Of a DNA stretch of 64,000 nucleotides, positions 3,062 through 41,768 are shown piece after piece (position 1 is the stretch's first letter; each line of letters begins with the position of its first letter). The position numbers were made by a program, and so were the translations under genes. A model generated the notes under the pieces. That model ran no database searches, was not told the origin of the DNA, and was given only the letters and a program-made list of their open reading frames with translations. The stretch is taken from NCBI RefSeq assembly GCF_054482595.1, contig NZ_CM137008.1. One strand, written 5' to 3'.

Positions 3062-5296
3062 ATGGTTGCGGTAAGAAGTGCACATATCAATAAGGCTGGT
3101 GAATTTGATCCGGAAAAATGGATCGCAAGTCTGGGTATTACCAGCCAGAAGTCGTGTGAGTGCTTAGCCGAAACCTGGGCGTATTGTCTGCAACAGACGC
3201 AGGGGCATCCGGATGCCAGTCTGTTATTGTGGCGTGGTGTTGAGATGGTGGAGATCCTCTCGACATTAAGTATGGACATTGACACGCTGCGGGCGGCGCT
3301 GCTGTTCCCTCTGGCTGATGCCAACGTAGTCAGCGAAGATGTGCTGCGTGAGAGCGTCGGTAAGTCGGTCGTTAACCTTATTCACGGCGTGCGTGATATG
3401 GCGGCGATCCGCCAGCTGAAAGCGACGCACACTGATTCTGTTTCCTCCGAACAGGTCGATAACGTTCGCCGGATGTTATTGGCGATGGTCGATGATTTTC
3501 GCTGCGTGGTCATCAAACTGGCGGAGCGTATTGCTCATCTGCGCGAAGTAAAAGATGCGCCGGAAGATGAACGCGTACTGGCGGCAAAAGAGTGCACCAA
3601 TATCTACGCGCCGTTGGCGAACCGTCTTGGGATTGGGCAACTGAAATGGGAGCTGGAAGATTACTGCTTCCGTTATCTCCACCCGACCGAATACAAACGC
3701 ATCGCAAAACTGCTGCATGAACGCCGTCTCGACCGCGAACACTATATCGAAGAGTTTGTCGGCCATCTGCGCGCTGAGATGAAAGCTGAAGGCGTTAAAG
3801 CTGAAGTGTATGGTCGTCCGAAACACATCTACAGTATCTGGCGCAAAATGCAGAAAAAGAACCTCGCCTTCGATGAGCTGTTTGATGTGCGTGCGGTACG
3901 TATTGTCGCCGAGCGTTTACAGGATTGTTATGCCGCACTGGGGATAGTGCACACTCACTATCGCCACCTGCCGGATGAGTTTGACGATTATGTCGCTAAC
4001 CCGAAACCAAACGGTTATCAGTCTATTCATACCGTGGTTCTGGGGCCAGGTGGCAAAACCGTTGAGATCCAAATCCGCACCAAACAGATGCATGAAGATG
4101 CAGAGTTGGGTGTTGCTGCGCACTGGAAATATAAAGAGGGCGCGGCAGCTGGCGGCGCACGTTCGGGACATGAAGACCGGATTGCCTGGCTGCGTAAACT
4201 GATTGCGTGGCAGGAAGAGATGGCTGATTCCGGCGAAATGCTCGACGAAGTACGCAGCCAGGTCTTTGACGACCGGGTGTATGTCTTTACGCCGAAAGGT
4301 GATGTCGTTGATTTGCCTGCGGGATCAACGCCGCTGGACTTCGCTTACCACATCCACAGTGATGTCGGACACCGCTGCATCGGGGCAAAAATTGGCGGGC
4401 GCATTGTGCCGTTCACCTACCAGCTGCAGATGGGCGACCAGATTGAAATTATCACCCAGAAACAGCCGAACCCCAGCCGTGACTGGTTAAACCCAAACCT
4501 CGGTTACGTCACAACCAGCCGTGGGCGTTCGAAAATTCACGCCTGGTTCCGTAAACAGGACCGTGACAAAAACATTCTGGCTGGGCGGCAAATCCTTGAC
4601 GACGAGCTGGAACATCTGGGGATCAGCCTGAAAGAAGCAGAAAAACATCTGCTGCCGCGTTACAACTTTAATGATGTCGACGAGTTGCTGGCGGCGATTG
4701 GTGGCGGGGATATCCGTCTCAATCAGATGGTGAACTTCCTGCAATCGCAATTTAATAAGCCGAGTGCCGAAGAGCAGGACGCCGCCGCGCTGAAGCAACT
4801 TCAGCAAAAAAGCTACACGCCGCAAAACCGCAGTAAAGATAACGGTCGCGTGGTGGTCGAAGGTGTTGGCAACCTGATGCACCACATCGCGCGCTGCTGC
4901 CAGCCGATTCCTGGAGATGAGATTGTCGGCTTCATTACCCAGGGGCGCGGTATTTCAGTACACCGCGCCGATTGCGAACAACTGGCGGAACTGCGCTCCC
5001 ATGCGCCAGAACGCATTGTTGACGCGGTATGGGGTGAGAGCTACTCCGCCGGATATTCGCTGGTGGTCCGCGTGGTGGCTAATGATCGTAGTGGGTTGTT
5101 ACGTGATATCACGACCATTCTCGCCAACGAGAAGGTGAACGTGCTTGGCGTTGCCAGCCGTAGCGACACCAAACAGCAACTGGCGACCATCGACATGACC
5201 ATTGAGATTTACAACCTGCAAGTGCTGGGGCGCGTGCTGGGTAAACTCAACCAGGTGCCGGATGTTATCGACGCGCGTCGGTTGCACGGGAGTTAG
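3062..5296 (+). CDS. relA: GTP pyrophosphokinase RelA ((p)ppGpp synthetase I)
   Basis: 744 aa ORF starting MVAVRSAHINKAGEFDPEKW; full-length RelA. Confidence 0.95.
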   Translation: MVAVRSAHINKAGEFDPEKWIASLGITSQKSCECLAETWAYCLQQTQGHPDASLLLWRGVEMVEILSTLSMDIDTLRAALLFPLADANVVSEDVLRESVGKSVVNLIHGVRDMAAIRQLKATHTDSVSSEQVDNVRRMLLAMVDDFRCVVIKLAERIAHLREVKDAPEDERVLAAKECTNIYAPLANRLGIGQLKWELEDYCFRYLHPTEYKRIAKLLHERRLDREHYIEEFVGHLRAEMKAEGVKAEVYGRPKHIYSIWRKMQKKNLAFDELFDVRAVRIVAERLQDCYAALGIVHTHYRHLPDEFDDYVANPKPNGYQSIHTVVLGPGGKTVEIQIRTKQMHEDAELGVAAHWKYKEGAAAGGARSGHEDRIAWLRKLIAWQEEMADSGEMLDEVRSQVFDDRVYVFTPKGDVVDLPAGSTPLDFAYHIHSDVGHRCIGAKIGGRIVPFTYQLQMGDQIEIITQKQPNPSRDWLNPNLGYVTTSRGRSKIHAWFRKQDRDKNILAGRQILDDELEHLGISLKEAEKHLLPRYNFNDVDELLAAIGGGDIRLNQMVNFLQSQFNKPSAEEQDAAALKQLQQKSYTPQNRSKDNGRVVVEGVGNLMHHIARCCQPIPGDEIVGFITQGRGISVHRADCEQLAELRSHAPERIVDAVWGESYSAGYSLVVRVVANDRSGLLRDITTILANEKVNVLGVASRSDTKQQLATIDMTIEIYNLQVLGRVLGKLNQVPDVIDARRLHGS

Positions 5297-5309
5297 GCCG
5301 AAATTTGCT

Positions 5310-5352
5310 CGTATCTACAATGTAGATTGATATATACTGTATCTACATATGA
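5310..5352 (+). promoter_or_regulatory. mazEF promoter/operator region with palindromic repeats
   Basis: atctacaatgtagat palindrome and second tgtatctacatatgata copy directly upstream of mazE; matches the autoregulated mazEF operator known from K-12. Confidence 0.5.
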
Positions 5353-5373
5353 TAGCGGTTTGAGGAAAGGGTT

Positions 5374-5622
5374 ATGATCCACAGTAGCGTAAAGCGTTGG
5401 GGAAATTCACCGGCGGTGCGGATCCCGGTTACGTTAATGCAGGCGCTCAATCTGAATATTGATGATGAAGTGAAGATTGACCTGGTGGATGGCAAATTAA
5501 TTATTGAGCCAGTGCGTAAAGAGCCCGTATTTACGCTTGCTGAACTGGTCAACGACATCACGCCGGAAAACCTCCACGAGAATATCGACTGGGGAGAGCC
5601 GAAAGATAAGGAAGTCTGGTAA
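5374..5622 (+). CDS. mazE: MazE antitoxin
   Basis: 82 aa [30 protein letters not shown]; overlaps mazF start. Confidence 0.95.
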
Positions 5623-5957
5623 TGGTAAGCCGATACGTACCCGATATGGGCGATCTGATTTGGGTTGATTTTGACCCGACAAAAGGTAGCGAGCAAGCTG
5701 GACATCGTCCAGCTGTTGTCCTGAGTCCTTTCATGTACAACAACAAAACAGGTATGTGTCTGTGTGTTCCTTATACAACGCAATCAAAAGGATATCCGTT
5801 CGAAGTTGTTTTATCCGGTCAGGAACGTGATGGCGTAGCGTTAGCTGATCAGGTAAAAAGTATCGCCTGGCGGGCAAGAGGAGCAACGAAGAAAGGAACA
5901 GTTGCCCCAGAGGAATTACAACTCATTAAAGCCAAAATTAACGTACTGATTGGGTAG
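5622..5957 (+). CDS. mazF: MazF mRNA interferase toxin
   Basis: 111 aa [38 protein letters not shown]. Confidence 0.95.
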   Translation: MVSRYVPDMGDLIWVDFDPTKGSEQAGHRPAVVLSPFMYNNKTGMCLCVPYTTQSKGYPFEVVLSGQERDGVALADQVKSIAWRARGATKKGTVAPEELQLIKAKINVLIG

Positions 5958-6027
5958 TGTTACTAACTCACTTCTATTCTGGTCACAGGTTTCCACCTGA
6001 CAGACCCGCAATTTTCAGGACAATTCA

Positions 6028-6819
6028 ATGAATCAAATCGACCGTTTGCTCACTATTATGCAGCGCCTGCGCGATCCGGAAAACGGCTGCCCGTGGGATA
6101 AAGAGCAGACATTTGCCACCATTGCGCCTTACACCCTTGAAGAAACCTACGAAGTGCTGGACGCCATCGCCCGTGAAGATTTTGACGATCTTCGCGGTGA
6201 ACTGGGCGATCTGCTATTCCAGGTGGTGTTTTACGCGCAAATGGCTCAGGAAGAAGGGCGCTTTGACTTTAATGATATTTGCGCTGCTATTAGCGATAAA
6301 TTAGAGCGTCGCCATCCGCATGTTTTTGCTGATAGTTCTGCCGAAAACAGTAGTGAAGTGCTTGCCCGTTGGGAGCAAATCAAAACCGAAGAGCGCGCGC
6401 AGAAAGCGCAGCATTCGGCGCTGGACGATATTCCTCGTAGTTTACCGGCTTTAATGCGTGCGCAAAAAATCCAGAAACGTTGCGCCAACGTTGGCTTCGA
6501 CTGGACGACGCTTGGCCCAGTGGTTGATAAAGTCTACGAAGAGATCGACGAGGTGATGTACGAGGCACGGCAGGCTGTTATCGACCAGGCTAAACTGGAG
6601 GAGGAAATGGGTGACCTGCTGTTTGCCACGGTCAATCTGGCTCGTCATTTAGGGACAAAAGCGGAAATCGCATTGCAAAAAGCGAACGAAAAATTCGAGC
6701 GTCGTTTTCGCGAAGTGGAGCGTATTGTTGCCGCGCGTGGATTGGAAATGACAGGTGTTGACCTCGAAACAATGGAAGAAGTCTGGCAACAGGTAAAACG
6801 GCAGGAAATTGATCTCTAA
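6028..6819 (+). CDS. mazG: Nucleoside triphosphate pyrophosphohydrolase MazG
   Basis: 263 aa ORF MNQIDRLLTIMQRLRDPENGCPWDKEQTF. Confidence 0.93.
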   Translation: MNQIDRLLTIMQRLRDPENGCPWDKEQTFATIAPYTLEETYEVLDAIAREDFDDLRGELGDLLFQVVFYAQMAQEEGRFDFNDICAAISDKLERRHPHVFADSSAENSSEVLARWEQIKTEERAQKAQHSALDDIPRSLPALMRAQKIQKRCANVGFDWTTLGPVVDKVYEEIDEVMYEARQAVIDQAKLEEEMGDLLFATVNLARHLGTKAEIALQKANEKFERRFREVERIVAARGLEMTGVDLETMEEVWQQVKRQEIDL

Positions 6820-12191: not shown

Positions 12192-13115
12192 TTACCAGCG
12201 CCCGGAAGCGCCACCGCCACCAGATGAACCGCCACCACCGCTAAAATTGTCATTGTCGAATGAAGAGGATGACGATGATGAATAGTGGGAGAAAGAATTG
12301 CTTCTTGTATGGCGTGATGGCTGGTTGGCATCACGCATCAAATCCCGAACTTTTTTGCCGAAGGGGGTAAAAGCGATGGCGACAGCCAGGAACGGTGTGG
12401 CGAAGCAGAGTAATGTTGTGAGTACTCCCCAGCTTCCGCTGAAACCTGCTATAGGTAAAACAAAGGCCAGTACAATAGCTGCGAAGCAAATTACTCCCAG
12501 CGTTTTGATATATCCTCTGGCAGAAATAAACGTCAGTACTATCGCCCAGGCTAACAAGGCCCACCAACCGCTAAAAGGTAAAGGGTGATCGGCCGGTGCT
12601 ATCGTCGCTAAATTATTCCCTGCCAAACGGTTTTCAATATCGCTGAGTCCCTTTTGCAAGCCGCCAGCAAGATCACCATTTTTAAATGCCGGAATAATAC
12701 TGTTGCGAATAATTTGCCCGGACTGCGCATCCGTAATAATACCTTCCAGTCCGTAACCGATTTCAATACGCACGGTATGATCCTGCCAGGCGACTAACAG
12801 TAGAACGCCATCATCGCTGTCTTTATCACCCGGTTTCCAGCTATCGAATACCCGCGTTGCGTACTGCTCGATGGTTTCATCGCCTGTTGTATCAACCACT
12901 AACACGACCAACTGTGCGTGGTTTTTTTGCGTCAGGGCTTTAATCTGGTTGGTCAGGGTGTTTACTTCGCTGTTTGTTAATGTGCCGGTTAAGTCATTCA
13001 CATACTTGGGGGATTCAGGTACTGGAATTTGTGTGGCAAACACAGATGAACAGAAGAAAGCCATAAGGAAGATAAAATTTCGCACAGAACTTCCCCGCTT
13101 AATGAGCATTAGCAT
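12192..13115 (-). CDS. TPM-domain membrane protein, paralog 3
   Basis: 307 aa ORF; TPM core GVLLLVAWQDHTVRIEIGYGLEG; TM helices; tail SGGGGSSGGGGASGRW; start ATG at 13115 or 13109, overlapping the lemA 3' end. Confidence 0.75.
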   Translation of the reverse strand: MLMLIKRGSSVRNFIFLMAFFCSSVFATQIPVPESPKYVNDLTGTLTNSEVNTLTNQIKALTQKNHAQLVVLVVDTTGDETIEQYATRVFDSWKPGDKDSDDGVLLLVAWQDHTVRIEIGYGLEGIITDAQSGQIIRNSIIPAFKNGDLAGGLQKGLSDIENRLAGNNLATIAPADHPLPFSGWWALLAWAIVLTFISARGYIKTLGVICFAAIVLAFVLPIAGFSGSWGVLTTLLCFATPFLAVAIAFTPFGKKVRDLMRDANQPSRHTRSNSFSHYSSSSSSSFDNDNFSGGGGSSGGGGASGRW

Positions 13116-14883: not shown

Positions 14884-15339
14884 GAGTTCCCCGCGCCAGC
14901 GGGGATAAACCGGCCTGGCGATTTCTCGTCAGGCCTTGCGGTGTGAGTTCCCCGCGCCAGCGGGGATAAACCGTCAGTAAAGCGGCGCCCACTGATATCG
15001 GATTAGAGTTCCCCGCGCCAGCGGGGATAAACCGAGGGGCAGGGAGTGACGCTGGAGCAGGCGATCGAGTTCCCCGCGCCAGCGGGGATAAACCGGGAAA
15101 TTAGGCAAATGTGAACACGGCGGCCCCGAGTTCCCCGCGCCAGCGGGGATAAACCGCCAGTATTTTGTCGTGGATTGCGGGATCACCAGAGTTCCCCGCG
15201 CCAGCGGGGATAAACCGTTGAGTTTGTTCGTAACAACGCGGGTCATCTGGAGTTCCCCGCGGCAGCGGGGATAAACCGGGTACAAAAGAGGCCCCATTCT
15301 GGCAGGGCTCAAGTTCCCCGCGCCAGTGGGGATAAACCA
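14884..15339 (+). CRISPR. Type I-E CRISPR array A: 8 repeats, 7 spacers of 32 nt
   Basis: Repeat gagttccccgcgccagcggggataaaccg at 14884, 14945, 15006, 15067, 15128, 15189, 15250 (c13g variant), 15311 (degenerate terminal); exact 61-bp period. Confidence 0.97.
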
Positions 15340-31038: not shown

Positions 31039-31773
31039 ATGTCCAAACTCGATCTAAACGCCCTGAACGAACTGCCGAAGGTAGATCGCATTCTGGCGCT
31101 GGCGGAAACTAACGCCCAACTGGAAAAACTGGACGCTGAAGGCCGCGTAGCCTGGGCGCTGGATAATCTGCCCGGTGAATATGTGCTTTCTTCCAGCTTC
31201 GGCATTCAGGCGGCGGTGAGCCTGCATCTGGTGAATCAGATTCGCCCGGATATTCCAGTGATCCTCACCGATACCGGTTACTTGTTCCCGGAAACCTACC
31301 GCTTTATCGATGAGTTAACGGACAAACTCAAGCTCAACCTGAAAGTGTACCGTGCTACCGAAAGCGCAGCCTGGCAGGAAGCACGCTACGGAAAACTGTG
31401 GGAACAGGGCGTTGAAGGCATTGAAAAGTACAATGACATCAACAAAGTCGAACCGATGAACCGGGCGCTGAAAGAACTTAACGCGCAAACGTGGTTTGCT
31501 GGCCTGCGCCGTGAACAATCCGGCAGCCGCGCCAATTTACCGGTGCTGGCAATTCAGCGTGGCGTATTTAAAGTGCTGCCGATTATCGACTGGGATAACC
31601 GAACGATATATCAGTATCTGCAAAAGCATGGCCTGAAATATCACCCATTATGGGACGAAGGATATTTATCGGTGGGCGATACCCATACAACCCGTAAATG
31701 GGAACCCGGCATGGCGGAAGAAGAAACGCGTTTCTTTGGCTTAAAAAGGGAATGTGGGTTACACGAAGGGTAA
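31039..31773 (+). CDS. cysH: Phosphoadenosine phosphosulfate reductase
   Basis: Start [21 protein letters not shown] inside ORF 30886..31773; 244 aa. Confidence 0.93.
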
Positions 31774-31830: not shown

Positions 31831-32130
31831 CGAGCAGCATTCCTGATTTTAAACGTGAACGCCGCTGGAAGAATTATCAGGTATAGAATGGCGTCGGGTG
31901 CTTGAGGCTGTCTGGCGTTAAGCATTCGCGAGGTTCCAGATGGACAAAAGCCCCAGGCGATATTTCTATCAACCTGAGGCTCGCGTTCGAACGTAGCAAT
32001 TCGGATGTTAGTCTCTTCTTTGCAGGGAGGCAAGACATGTGTATATCACTGTAATTCGATATTTATGAGCAGCATCGAAAAATAGCCCGCTGATATCATC
32101 GATAATACTAAAAAAACAGGGAGGCTATTA

Positions 32131-34797
32131 ATGGAACCTTTTAAATATATATGCCATTACTGGGGAAAATCCTCAAAAAGCCTGACGAAAGGAAATGATA
32201 TTCATCTGTTAATTTATCATTGCCTTGATGTTGCTGCTGTTGCAGATTGCTGGTGGGATCAATCAGTCGTACTGCAAAATACTTTTTGCCGAAATGAAAT
32301 GCTATCAAAACAGAGGGTGAAGGCCTGGCTGTTATTTTTCATTGCTCTTCATGATATTGGAAAGTTTGATATACGATTCCAATATAAATCAGCAGAAAGT
32401 TGGCTGAAATTAAATCCTGCAACGCCATCACTTAATGGTCCATCAACACAAATGTGCCGTAAATTTAATCATGGTGCAGCCGGTCTGTATTGGTTTAACC
32501 AGGATTCACTTTCAGAGCAATCTCCCGGGGATTTTTTCAGTTTTTTTGATGCCGCTCCTCATCCTTATGAGTCCTGGTTTCCATGGGTAGAGGCCGTTAC
32601 AGGACATCATGGTTTTATATTACATTCCCAGGATCAAGATAAGTCGCGTTGGGAAATGCCAGCTTCTCTGGCATCTTATGCTGCGCAAGATAAACAGGCT
32701 CGTGAGGAGTGGATATCTGTACTCGAAGCATTATTTTTAACGCCAGCCGGGTTATCTATAAACGATATACCACCTGATTGTTCATCACTGTTAGCAGGTT
32801 TTTGCTCGCTTGCTGACTGGTTAGGTTCCTGGACCACAACGGATACCTTTCTTTTCAAAGAAGATGCACCTTCAGGAATACAAGCGCTAAGAACATATTT
32901 TCAGGATAGACAGCAGGATGCGTGTCGGGTACTGGCGCTGAGTGGCCTTGTATCAAATAAGCGTCGTTATGACGGTGTACATGCCTTACTGGACAATGGC
33001 TATCAACCAAGACAATTACAGGTGTTGGTCGATGCTCTTCCTACAGCTCCCGGGCTGACGGTGATTGAGGCACCTACGGGATCAGGTAAAACCGAAACAG
33101 CGCTGGCCTATGCCTGGAAACTTATTGACCAACAACTTGCGGAGAGTGTTATTTTTGCCCTCCCTACACAAGCTACTGCAAATACAATGCTCAGCAGAAT
33201 GGAAGCGAACGCGAGCCGTTTATTTACCTCCCCAAATCTTATTCTTGCTCATGGTAATTCACGTTTTAACCACCTTTTTCAATCAATAAAATCACGCGCA
33301 TTTACTGAGCAGGGGCAAGAAGAAGCGTGGGTTCAGTGTTGTCAGTGGTTGTCACAAAGCAATAAGAAAGTGTTTCTTGGGCAAATCGGCGTTTGCACTA
33401 TTGATCAGGTGTTGATATCGGTATTGCCAGTTAAACACCGCTTTATCCGTGGTTTGGGAATTGGTCGAAGTGTTTTAATTGTTGATGAAGTTCATGCTTA
33501 CGACACCTATATGAACGGCTTGCTGGAGGCAGTGCTCAAGGCTCAGGCTGATGTGGGAGGGAGTGTTATTCTTCTTTCCGCAACCCTACCAATGAAACAA
33601 AAACAGAAACTTCTGGATACTTATGGTCTGCATACAGATCCAGTGGAAAATAACTCCGCATATCCACTTATTAACTGGCGAGGTGTGAATGGTGCGCAAC
33701 GTTTTGATCTGCCAGCTCATCCAGAACAACTCCCGCCCCGCTTTTCGATTCAGCCAGAACCTATTTATTTAGCTGACATGTTACCTGACCTTACGATGTT
33801 AGAGCGAATGATCGCAGCGGCAAACGCGGGTGCACAAGTCTGCCTCATTTGCAATTTGGTTGACGTTGCACAACTATGCTTCCAACGGCTAAAGGAACTA
33901 AATGACACGCAAGTAGATATAGATTTGTTTCATGCGCGCTTTACGCTGAACGATCGTCGTGAAAAAGAGAATCGTGTCATTAGCAATTTCGGAAAAAATG
34001 GGGAGCGAAATGTTGGACGAATACTTGTCGCCACCCAGGTCGTGGAACAATCACTCGATGTAGATTTTGATTGGTTAATTACCCAGCATTGTCCCGCTGA
34101 TTTGCTTTTCCAACGATTAGGCCGTTTACATCGCCATCATCGTAAATATCGTCCCGCCGGTTTTGAGATTCCTCTGGCAACCGTTTTGCTGCCTGATGGC
34201 GAAGGTTACGGACGACATGAGCATATTTATAGCAACGTTAGAGTCATGTGGCGGACGCAGCAACATATTGAGGAACTTAATGGAGCATCCTTATTTTTCC
34301 CTGATGCCTACCGGCAATGGCTGGATAGCATTTACGATGATGCTGAAATGGATGAGCCAGAATGGGTCATCAAAGGCATGGATAAGTTTGAAAGCGCTGA
34401 GTGTGAAAAGAGGTTCAAGGCTCGCAAGGTTCTGCAGTGGGCTGAAGAATATAGTTTGCAGGATAACGATGAAACCATTCTTGCGGTAACGAGGGATGGG
34501 GAAATGAGCCTGCCATTATTGCCTTATGTACAAACGTCTTCAGGTAAACAACTGCTCGATGGCCAGGTCTACGAGGACCTAAGTCATGAACAGCAGTATG
34601 AGGCTTTAGCACTTAATCGCGTCAATGTGCCATTTACCTGGAAACGTAGTTTTTCTGAAGTAGTCGATGAAGATGGGTTACTTTGGCTGGAAGGAAGGCA
34701 GAATCAGGATGGATGGATCTGGCAGGGTAACAGTATTGTTATTACCTACACTCGGGATGAAGGGATGACCAGAGTCATCCCTGCAAATCCCAAATAA
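32131..34797 (+). CDS. cas3: Cas3 helicase-nuclease (type I-E)
   Basis: 888 aa ORF MEPFKYICHYWGKSS; HD motif region (HDIGKF), Walker A APTGSGKT, DEVH box (VLIVDEVHAYD). Confidence 0.96.
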   Translation: MEPFKYICHYWGKSSKSLTKGNDIHLLIYHCLDVAAVADCWWDQSVVLQNTFCRNEMLSKQRVKAWLLFFIALHDIGKFDIRFQYKSAESWLKLNPATPSLNGPSTQMCRKFNHGAAGLYWFNQDSLSEQSPGDFFSFFDAAPHPYESWFPWVEAVTGHHGFILHSQDQDKSRWEMPASLASYAAQDKQAREEWISVLEALFLTPAGLSINDIPPDCSSLLAGFCSLADWLGSWTTTDTFLFKEDAPSGIQALRTYFQDRQQDACRVLALSGLVSNKRRYDGVHALLDNGYQPRQLQVLVDALPTAPGLTVIEAPTGSGKTETALAYAWKLIDQQLAESVIFALPTQATANTMLSRMEANASRLFTSPNLILAHGNSRFNHLFQSIKSRAFTEQGQEEAWVQCCQWLSQSNKKVFLGQIGVCTIDQVLISVLPVKHRFIRGLGIGRSVLIVDEVHAYDTYMNGLLEAVLKAQADVGGSVILLSATLPMKQKQKLLDTYGLHTDPVENNSAYPLINWRGVNGAQRFDLPAHPEQLPPRFSIQPEPIYLADMLPDLTMLERMIAAANAGAQVCLICNLVDVAQLCFQRLKELNDTQVDIDLFHARFTLNDRREKENRVISNFGKNGERNVGRILVATQVVEQSLDVDFDWLITQHCPADLLFQRLGRLHRHHRKYRPAGFEIPLATVLLPDGEGYGRHEHIYSNVRVMWRTQQHIEELNGASLFFPDAYRQWLDSIYDDAEMDEPEWVIKGMDKFESAECEKRFKARKVLQWAEEYSLQDNDETILAVTRDGEMSLPLLPYVQTSSGKQLLDGQVYEDLSHEQQYEALALNRVNVPFTWKRSFSEVVDEDGLLWLEGRQNQDGWIWQGNSIVITYTRDEGMTRVIPANPK

Positions 34798-39562: not shown

Positions 39563-39577
39563 TTGAGGTGTAATAAA

Positions 39578-40780
<1,203 letters not shown>

Positions 40781-40885: not shown

Positions 40886-41768
40886 GAGTTCCCCGCGCCA
40901 GCGGGGATAAACCGCATTTAATGCAAAACTAATTGCACAATAAATAGAGTTCCCCGCGCCAGCGGGGATAAACCGGCGATAAACCTCCTCATCGCTGATA
41001 TCAATAAGAGTTCCCCGCGCCAGCGGGGATAAACCGATAAAGGCTCGGCGGCGCAAAAAATGGCACGGGAGTTCCCCGCGCCAGCGGGGATAAACCGCTC
41101 TCGTTGTTGTGCCTCAGTACCGGTGCGCGGAGTTCCCCGCGCCAGCGGGGATAAACCGCACACCGGTGCGACGGGAAACGTTCAGCGGCCGAGTTCCCCG
41201 CGCCAGCGGGGATAAACCGGGAATAGTTAATTTCGGTGATGGCTGCGTAAAGAGTTCCCCGCGGCAGCGGGGATAAACCGAGTAATGCTGCGTTGAGATG
41301 ACCAGGCGGGCTGAGTTCCCCGCGGCAGCGGGGATAAACCGTTGACGCCAGCGGCGACCCGCGCCACGGGCTTGAGTTCCCCGCGCCAGCGGGGATAAAC
41401 CGTAGCCAGACGTACTCGCAATCTGTCGGCGGTCGAGTTCCCCGCGCCAGCGGGGATAAACCACCAGTTCTCCGTATTCTGTGGTTATCGTTGCTGAGTT
41501 CCCCGCGCCAGCGGGGATAAACCGGGAGTTCAGACATAGGTGGAATGATGGACTACGAGTTCCCCGCGTTAGCGGGGATAAACCGCCCGGTAGCCAGGTT
41601 TGCAACGCCTGAACCGAGAGTTCCCCGCGCCAGCAGGGATAAACCGGCAACGACGGTGAGATTTCACGCCTGACGCTGGTGTTCCCCGCGCCAGCGGGGA
41701 TAAACCGGGCGCACTGGATGCGATGATGGATATCACTGAGAATTCCCCGCCCCTGCGGTAGAACACCC
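40886..41768 (+). CRISPR. Type I-E CRISPR array B: 15 repeats, 14 spacers of 32 nt
   Basis: Repeats every 61 bp from 40886 to 41740; variants at repeats 7-8 (c13g), 10 (3' a), 12 (cc to tt), 13 (g to a), 14 (a2t); terminal repeat 41740-41768 degenerate. Confidence 0.97.

Follow-up and report, generated by a model that had tools for sequence, protein, structure and literature searches.

Analysis of a 64,000-nucleotide stretch of DNA (hereafter the window) showed that positions 5297-5957 almost certainly hold the Escherichia coli chromosomal type II toxin-antitoxin system mazEF (chpAI/chpAK), which is intact and occupies its canonical position between relA and mazG. The initial annotation was right to call it well known and of low interest: the mazEF locus in the window is already known, being the reference locus with two point substitutions.

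The six-frame open reading frame (ORF) list placed mazE at 5374-5622 (82 aa) and mazF at 5622-5957 (111 aa), both on the + strand and both with an ATG start. The two genes share one nucleotide, A5622, which is common to the mazE stop codon TAA (5620-5622) and the mazF start codon ATG (5622-5624) within TAATGG at 5620-5625. Neither reading frame carries a frameshift or a premature stop in the window sequence. The ORF list and the sequence therefore confirmed the initial description of an intact mazEF pair after relA, with products of 82 and 111 aa and a 1-nt overlap. [quoted passage not shown] In the mazE product, which serves as antitoxin and autorepressor, an AbrB/SpoVT-type DNA-binding domain at the N-terminus is followed by a MazF-binding tail at the C-terminus.

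The surroundings of the pair were also those of the chromosomal relA-mazEFG locus. The relA gene (3062-5296, 744 aa) lies upstream, position 5297, where the region under study starts, being the first base past its end, and mazG, encoding a nucleoside triphosphate pyrophosphohydrolase (6028-6819, + strand), lies downstream as context outside the toxin-antitoxin pair. The gene order rlmD-relA-mazE-mazF-mazG-pyrG-eno is the same as in K-12 MG1655 and likewise in XH990, and barA is located upstream of rlmD/relA on the opposite strand in the window. A purine-rich stretch, GAGGAAAGGG (5362-5371, + strand), situated 3 nt upstream of the mazE ATG, is the likely mazE ribosome-binding site. The mazG gene has been reported to be co-transcribed in a relA-mazEFG operon (PMC7167474). 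A scan for terminators over 5100-6100 found none past mazF on the + strand.

Comparison with protein family models showed that MazE scored 193.6 bits against the NCBIfam equivalog NF007312 (cut-off 113; residues 1-82 on model positions 1-82) and that MazF scored 225.6 bits against the equivalog NF007386 (cut-off 120; residues 1-111 on model positions 1-111). The broader Pfam models PF04014 (MazE_antitoxin; 49.1 bits, cut-off 24.7) and PF02452 (PemK_toxin; 83.9 bits, cut-off 23.1) were also matched by MazE and MazF, respectively. MazF is identical at 110 of 111 residues to the proteins in PDB entries 3nfc (3nfc_A), 5ck9 (5ck9_A) and 1ub4, with one mismatch each, and MazE at 81 of 82 residues to those in 1mvf (1mvf_D) and 1ub4, again with one mismatch each. 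The alignment with characterised mazEF that had been put forward as a check thus placed each protein one residue away from its K-12 crystal sequence. On public record, exactly the same MazE protein is present as MazE on 783 contigs and exactly the same MazF protein as MazF on at least 1000 contigs. Matches to mazE/mazF in complete E. coli genomes were found at 4421 places, all of them chromosomal and none on a plasmid.

The closest characterised system is mazEF of E. coli K-12 (chpA; b2783/b2782; PDB 1UB4, 1MVF, 3NFC, 5CK9, 2MRU), which has the same gene lengths (82/111 aa), the same 1-nt overlap, an identical relA-mazE spacer, the same relA and mazG flanks and the same expected unit for the antisense RNA aMEF. 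It differs from the window at two of 661 bases over 5297-5957 (659 identical), that is, at MazE A19V and MazF C51Y. A gap-free alignment of the longer interval 5263-5957 with MG1655 gave the same two base differences only, both of them non-synonymous. Thirteen complete genomes, XH990, O157:H16 Santai, THO-010, TUM18780 and nine others, match 5297-5957 at 100%, and the RefSeq labels there are mazE and mazF.

The first substitution, C>T at 5429 relative to K-12, produces MazE A19V in the DNA-binding domain. The A19V allele is rare: it was detected in 13 of 5426 complete E. coli genomes, and these coincide with the 13 genomes that are 100% identical over the entire region. In an alignment of 96 homologues, position 19 is Ala in 88 and Val in 7, and Val occurs in some otherwise intact proteins, among them a Pantoea MazE. 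The residues K7, R8, W9, N11 and R16, listed as DNA contacts of the MazE AbrB-type domain (PMC4333400), are all present in the window protein, as is S12. It has been shown that the NMR signal of A19 shifts upon DNA binding, and in an NMR-driven docking model this residue contacts DNA through a backbone amide hydrogen bond and not through its side chain (PMC4333400). Since it is the backbone that contacts DNA and Val is a conservative replacement for Ala, MazE A19V would be expected to retain function. On the other side, A19V could alter operator affinity, since A19 is strongly conserved and its signal shifts on DNA binding.

The second substitution, G>A at 5773 relative to K-12, produces MazF C51Y, next to T52. 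Counted with 55-nt queries centred on the variant base, in which each 28-nt megablast seed word must include that base, this allele is common (1010 of 5426 complete E. coli genomes); it occurs in O26, O103 and O111 strains among others, and stands in mazF genes annotated as intact. Position 51 proved variable among 116 aligned MazF homologues (C 69, M 14, L 9, T 8, V 7, Y 5, I 4), and Tyr was seen there only in E. coli-like sequences. E24, R29, C48, P50 and T52 are nearly invariant in the same alignment and all are present here; R29 and T52 we take to be the catalytic pair of E. coli MazF. In related MazFs, the equivalent Arg and Thr are essential for activity. The E24A mutant of MazF has been described as inactive (PMC5888573). 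The frequency of the allele argues that C51Y is tolerated, and it is probably a neutral, common lineage allele. The mazF sequence in the window contains nine ACA triplets, some of them overlapping. The idea that C51Y creates or destroys an ACA self-cleavage site was rejected, as the ACA at 5775 lies past the changed base and is found in both alleles.

The two substitutions raise the question of whether the module is intact in structure and attenuated in function, with C51Y lowering the RNase activity and A19V weakening autorepression in a decaying or re-tuned lineage module. Both K-12 differences in the 661-bp region are non-synonymous, C51 adjoins a nearly invariant Thr whose equivalent is needed for activity in related MazFs, A19 is a well-conserved residue whose amide bonds to DNA in the published model, the A19V allele is rare, and the cassette as a whole is dispensable, being missing in about 1010 of 5426 genomes. 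However, position 51 is the most variable residue around the active site, the C51Y allele persists in 1010 genomes with its reading frame unbroken, it is the backbone of A19 that contacts DNA, Val is a conservative change that also occurs in otherwise intact homologues, and there is no other sign of decay, with K-12-identical start codons, overlap, operator and aMEF promoter region. Attenuation is therefore unlikely. A related proposal, that the rare pair MazE(A19V) plus MazF(C51Y) found in 13 of the 5426 complete genomes is a functionally re-tuned module, in which A19V would alter operator occupancy or the autoregulatory set-point and C51Y the RNase activity or the sensitivity to MazE, we regard as slightly less probable still. 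By homology, A19V and C51Y would both be expected to leave function unchanged.

The reading of the pair as another member of the MazF/PemK superfamily was given hardly any credence. The candidates are chpBIK (ChpS/ChpB) of E. coli and pemIK/kis-kid of plasmids R100/R1, which belong to the same superfamily, combine an AbrB-type antitoxin with an RNase of the PemK/MazF fold and, like mazEF here, are autoregulated two-gene systems; they differ from mazEF here in being distant in sequence, Kid matching the window MazF at E 9e-9, and in lying at other loci or on plasmids. Such a reading could draw on Pfam, which places the toxin only in the broad PemK_toxin family, and on weak, sub-threshold matches to the ChpS and ChpB models. 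However, with cut-offs of 101 and 129, the ChpS and ChpB matches reached 33.8 and 54.8 bits, respectively, whereas the MazE and MazF equivalog cut-offs were exceeded by a wide margin. In addition, each protein is one residue away from its K-12 counterpart of known crystal structure, and the locus is the chromosomal relA-mazEF-mazG locus, with 4421 of 4421 matching places chromosomal. A chpBIK or pemIK identity is thus ruled out by the NCBIfam cut-offs, the PDB matches and the chromosomal location.

The 77-bp relA-mazE spacer is identical base for base to that of K-12 MG1655. Zorzini et al. (2015) described an operator of 47 bp in which MazE dimers have three sites, named c, a and b (PMC4333400). 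When the published oligonucleotides were located in the window, they mapped exactly, giving a promoter-operator region ('cab') at 5308-5357 on the + strand with site c at 5311-5329, the core of site a, TGATATATACTG, at 5328-5339 (ATATAT at 5330-5335) and site b at 5332-5350. MazE binds this operator DNA specifically with micromolar affinity (Kd about 0.5-5 µM), as established by ITC, EMSA and NMR, and MazF boosts the binding near a 1:1 ratio, the boost being lost at a high MazF excess (PMC4333400). Site a is the one on which the NMR-based MazE-DNA model was built (PMC4333400). The identity of the spacer with K-12 and the exact mapping of the MazE-binding oligonucleotides onto 5308-5357 substantiated the initial view of an autoregulated mazEF operator.

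The 'alternating palindrome', a name from Marianovsky et al. (2001) as cited in PMC5888573 and PMC1626106, spans 5313-5348, and its arms are ATCTACA (5313-5319), TGTAGAT/ATGTAGAT (5320-5327) and ATCTACAT (5341-5348). A repeat search showed that ATCTACA (5313-5319) and TGTAGAT (5321-5327) form 7-nt arms separated by a 1-nt gap with 100% complementarity, and that ATGTAGAT (5320-5327) pairs perfectly with ATCTACAT (5341-5348), which lies in site b. The middle arm is accordingly able to pair with either outer arm. The palindrome ATCTACAATGTAGAT (5313-5327; given as atctacaatgtagat) that had been picked out at the outset corresponds to site c and has perfect 7-nt arms. A 'second related palindrome' had been proposed as well; its pairing is real and lies in site b, but it is not a separate element, being a third arm that shares the middle one. 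The spacer also holds a 9-nt direct repeat, GTATCTACA, at 5311 and 5339, and short palindromes, ATATAT (5330-5335) and CATATG (5346-5351). The site a ATATAT core (5330-5335), aMEF and both amino-acid substitutions had been overlooked in the initial annotation.

The exact 15-mer ATCTACANTGTAGAT is found a single time in the 64 kb; when up to two mismatches were allowed, 2 matches were counted against 0.10 expected, a number that none of 100 shuffles reached. The 7-mer ATCTACA occurs 10 times in the window against 4.9 expected, and three of these copies fall within 36 bp at the operator. It is scarcely believable that the palindromes arose by chance in an AT-rich spacer and form no operator: the arms are short (7-8 nt), the spacer is AT-rich and ATCTACA is found 10 times in the window, but the exact 15-mer is unique there and above every shuffle, three ATCTACA copies are packed into 36 bp, and the reading is ruled out by published MazE binding, demonstrated as specific by ITC, EMSA and NMR, to the identical sequence.

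A sigma-70 consensus scan of 5100-6100 showed no convincing promoter inside the operator, and the sole sigma-70 match in the spacer, at 5349-5378, overlaps the mazE start codon. According to reviews, MazE and MazF jointly exert negative autoregulation on transcription from promoter P2, and ClpPA degrades MazE (PMC1626106).

The antisense RNA aMEF (K-12 ameF, b4844) is expected at about 5263-5662 on the - strand, a position transferred from the MG1655 annotation (2911051-2911450) through the gap-free alignment. The expected span runs from the 5' part of mazF through mazE and the operator to the 3' end of relA. Its expected promoter lies inside mazF codons just above 5662, and the promoter region is K-12-identical. 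In K-12, the aMEF promoter is located within mazF, and its knockdown lowers both MazE and MazF to half and alters the balance of mazE versus mazEF transcripts in an RNase III-independent manner (PMC8749433). The predicted aMEF transcript of the window would carry the change at 5429.

The steps of the proposed mechanism are those of the K-12 literature (PMC4333400, PMC5888573, PMC8749433, PMC1626106), all of them inferred here from near-identity. The mazE and mazF genes would be co-transcribed from one or more promoters embedded in the 5308-5357 operator, and the one-base stop/start overlap would couple their translation. The dimeric MazF endoribonuclease would cut single-stranded RNA at ACA, its own mRNA included, as has been described for MazF (PMC5888573); the ACA specificity is predicted for the MazF encoded here because of its 110/111 identity. 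Given the 81/82 identity of MazE and the identical operator, MazE would be expected to neutralise its cognate MazF and to repress its own promoter. In this process, the C-terminal tail of MazE would bind and block MazF, and the N-terminal AbrB-type domain of the MazE dimer would bind sites c, a and b. MazF would raise the operator affinity of MazE near a 1:1 ratio and lower it in excess; because MazF raises the affinity near 1:1, the complex would repress its own promoter. MazE is labile and would be degraded by ClpAP and Lon, so that free MazF would build up when expression stops, leading to growth arrest. The antisense RNA aMEF, read from within mazF, would raise the levels of MazE and MazF, by about two-fold if it acts as in K-12.

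Of 5426 complete E. coli genomes, 4415-4418 carry the mazEF cassette, and in about 1010 relA and mazG are adjacent. The presence/absence polymorphism covers approximately 5296-5990, as delimited by alignment with O2:H1 HM670, a strain without the cassette, in which similarity to the window breaks off at the third base of the relA stop codon and is restored about 35-40 bp ahead of the mazG ATG. The left junction coincides exactly with the final base of that stop codon, which reads TAG in the presence of the cassette and TAA in its absence. In relA-mazG loci without the insert (e.g. UTI89 and O2:H1 HM670), relA and mazG are about 97-98% identical and stand in the same order, whereas a short unrelated spacer of about 60 bp replaces the roughly 690-bp cassette. 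The polymorphism is already known (PMC7167474), Fraikin et al. (2020) having described an undisturbed relA-mazG operon in strains such as UTI89 (PMC7167474).

Differences from K-12 are unevenly distributed along the locus, with about 35 substitutions in the middle of relA (3500-4300), about 14 in the 3' half of mazG (6500-6750) and 2 in about 700 bp of mazEF. Such a mosaic, with differences clustered in relA and mazG and only two in mazEF, is suggestive of recombination tracts flanking a highly conserved mazEF cassette.

The physiological role of mazEF is disputed, the proposals being programmed death, reversible stasis, phage defence and a selfish element (PMC7167474). A scan of MazE, MazF and MazG against PADLOC-DB v2 gave no match at E <= 0.001, which shows only that mazEF is uncatalogued there, and an effect on phage is still compatible with this result. 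The label 'defence system' was dropped because no PADLOC match was found: of the phrase 'defence or stress-related module' used initially, the word 'defence' lacks backing from PADLOC, and 'stress-related toxin-antitoxin module' is the safer label.

Several other features of the window were recorded in passing. The interval 31896-32051 (+ strand), between cysH (31039-31773) and cas3 (32131-34797), matches the Rfam family RF01794 ('sok antitoxin') over its full length (97.5 bits, gathering score 59, E 8.5e-21). No intact Hok peptide could be recognised among the small ORFs near 31896-32051. The interval appears to be a hok/sok-type type I toxin-antitoxin remnant and a third toxin-antitoxin-related element in the window. 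The cas1e gene of the type I-E CRISPR-Cas locus (39563-40494, + strand) is split into two ORFs, 39563-40051 and 40048-40494, and is a frameshifted pseudogene in XH990 according to RefSeq; cas3, casABCDE and cas2 look intact. The split in cas1e suggests that spacer acquisition is probably disabled. Two CRISPR arrays, at about 14884-15339 and from about 40886 onward, were transferred as features from XH990, and 15128-15278 showed a 61-nt periodicity. Up to 41219 (the first 41 kb), the window and XH990 are separated by only 3 mismatches, and from 41220, within the second CRISPR array, the two sequences diverge. As the match ends at 41220 within that array, the spacer content seems to differ from that of XH990 in an otherwise near-identical strain. 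In the TPM and LemA cluster downstream of eno, a TPM-domain gene at 12414-13085 (- strand) corresponds in the XH990 annotation to an incomplete pseudogene without a C-terminus.

The mazEF system of E. coli is among the first and best-characterised chromosomal toxin-antitoxin systems, and the copy in the window is essentially the reference locus. The annotation is confirmed as safe, and the anatomy of the operator (c, a and b) and the antisense RNA aMEF can be supplied to it. The allele frequencies at MazF position 51 and MazE position 19 can be used in considering natural variation in toxin-antitoxin set-points. If the improbable re-tuning proposal were true, natural lineages would carry mazEF alleles with different activation thresholds, which would be of modest interest.
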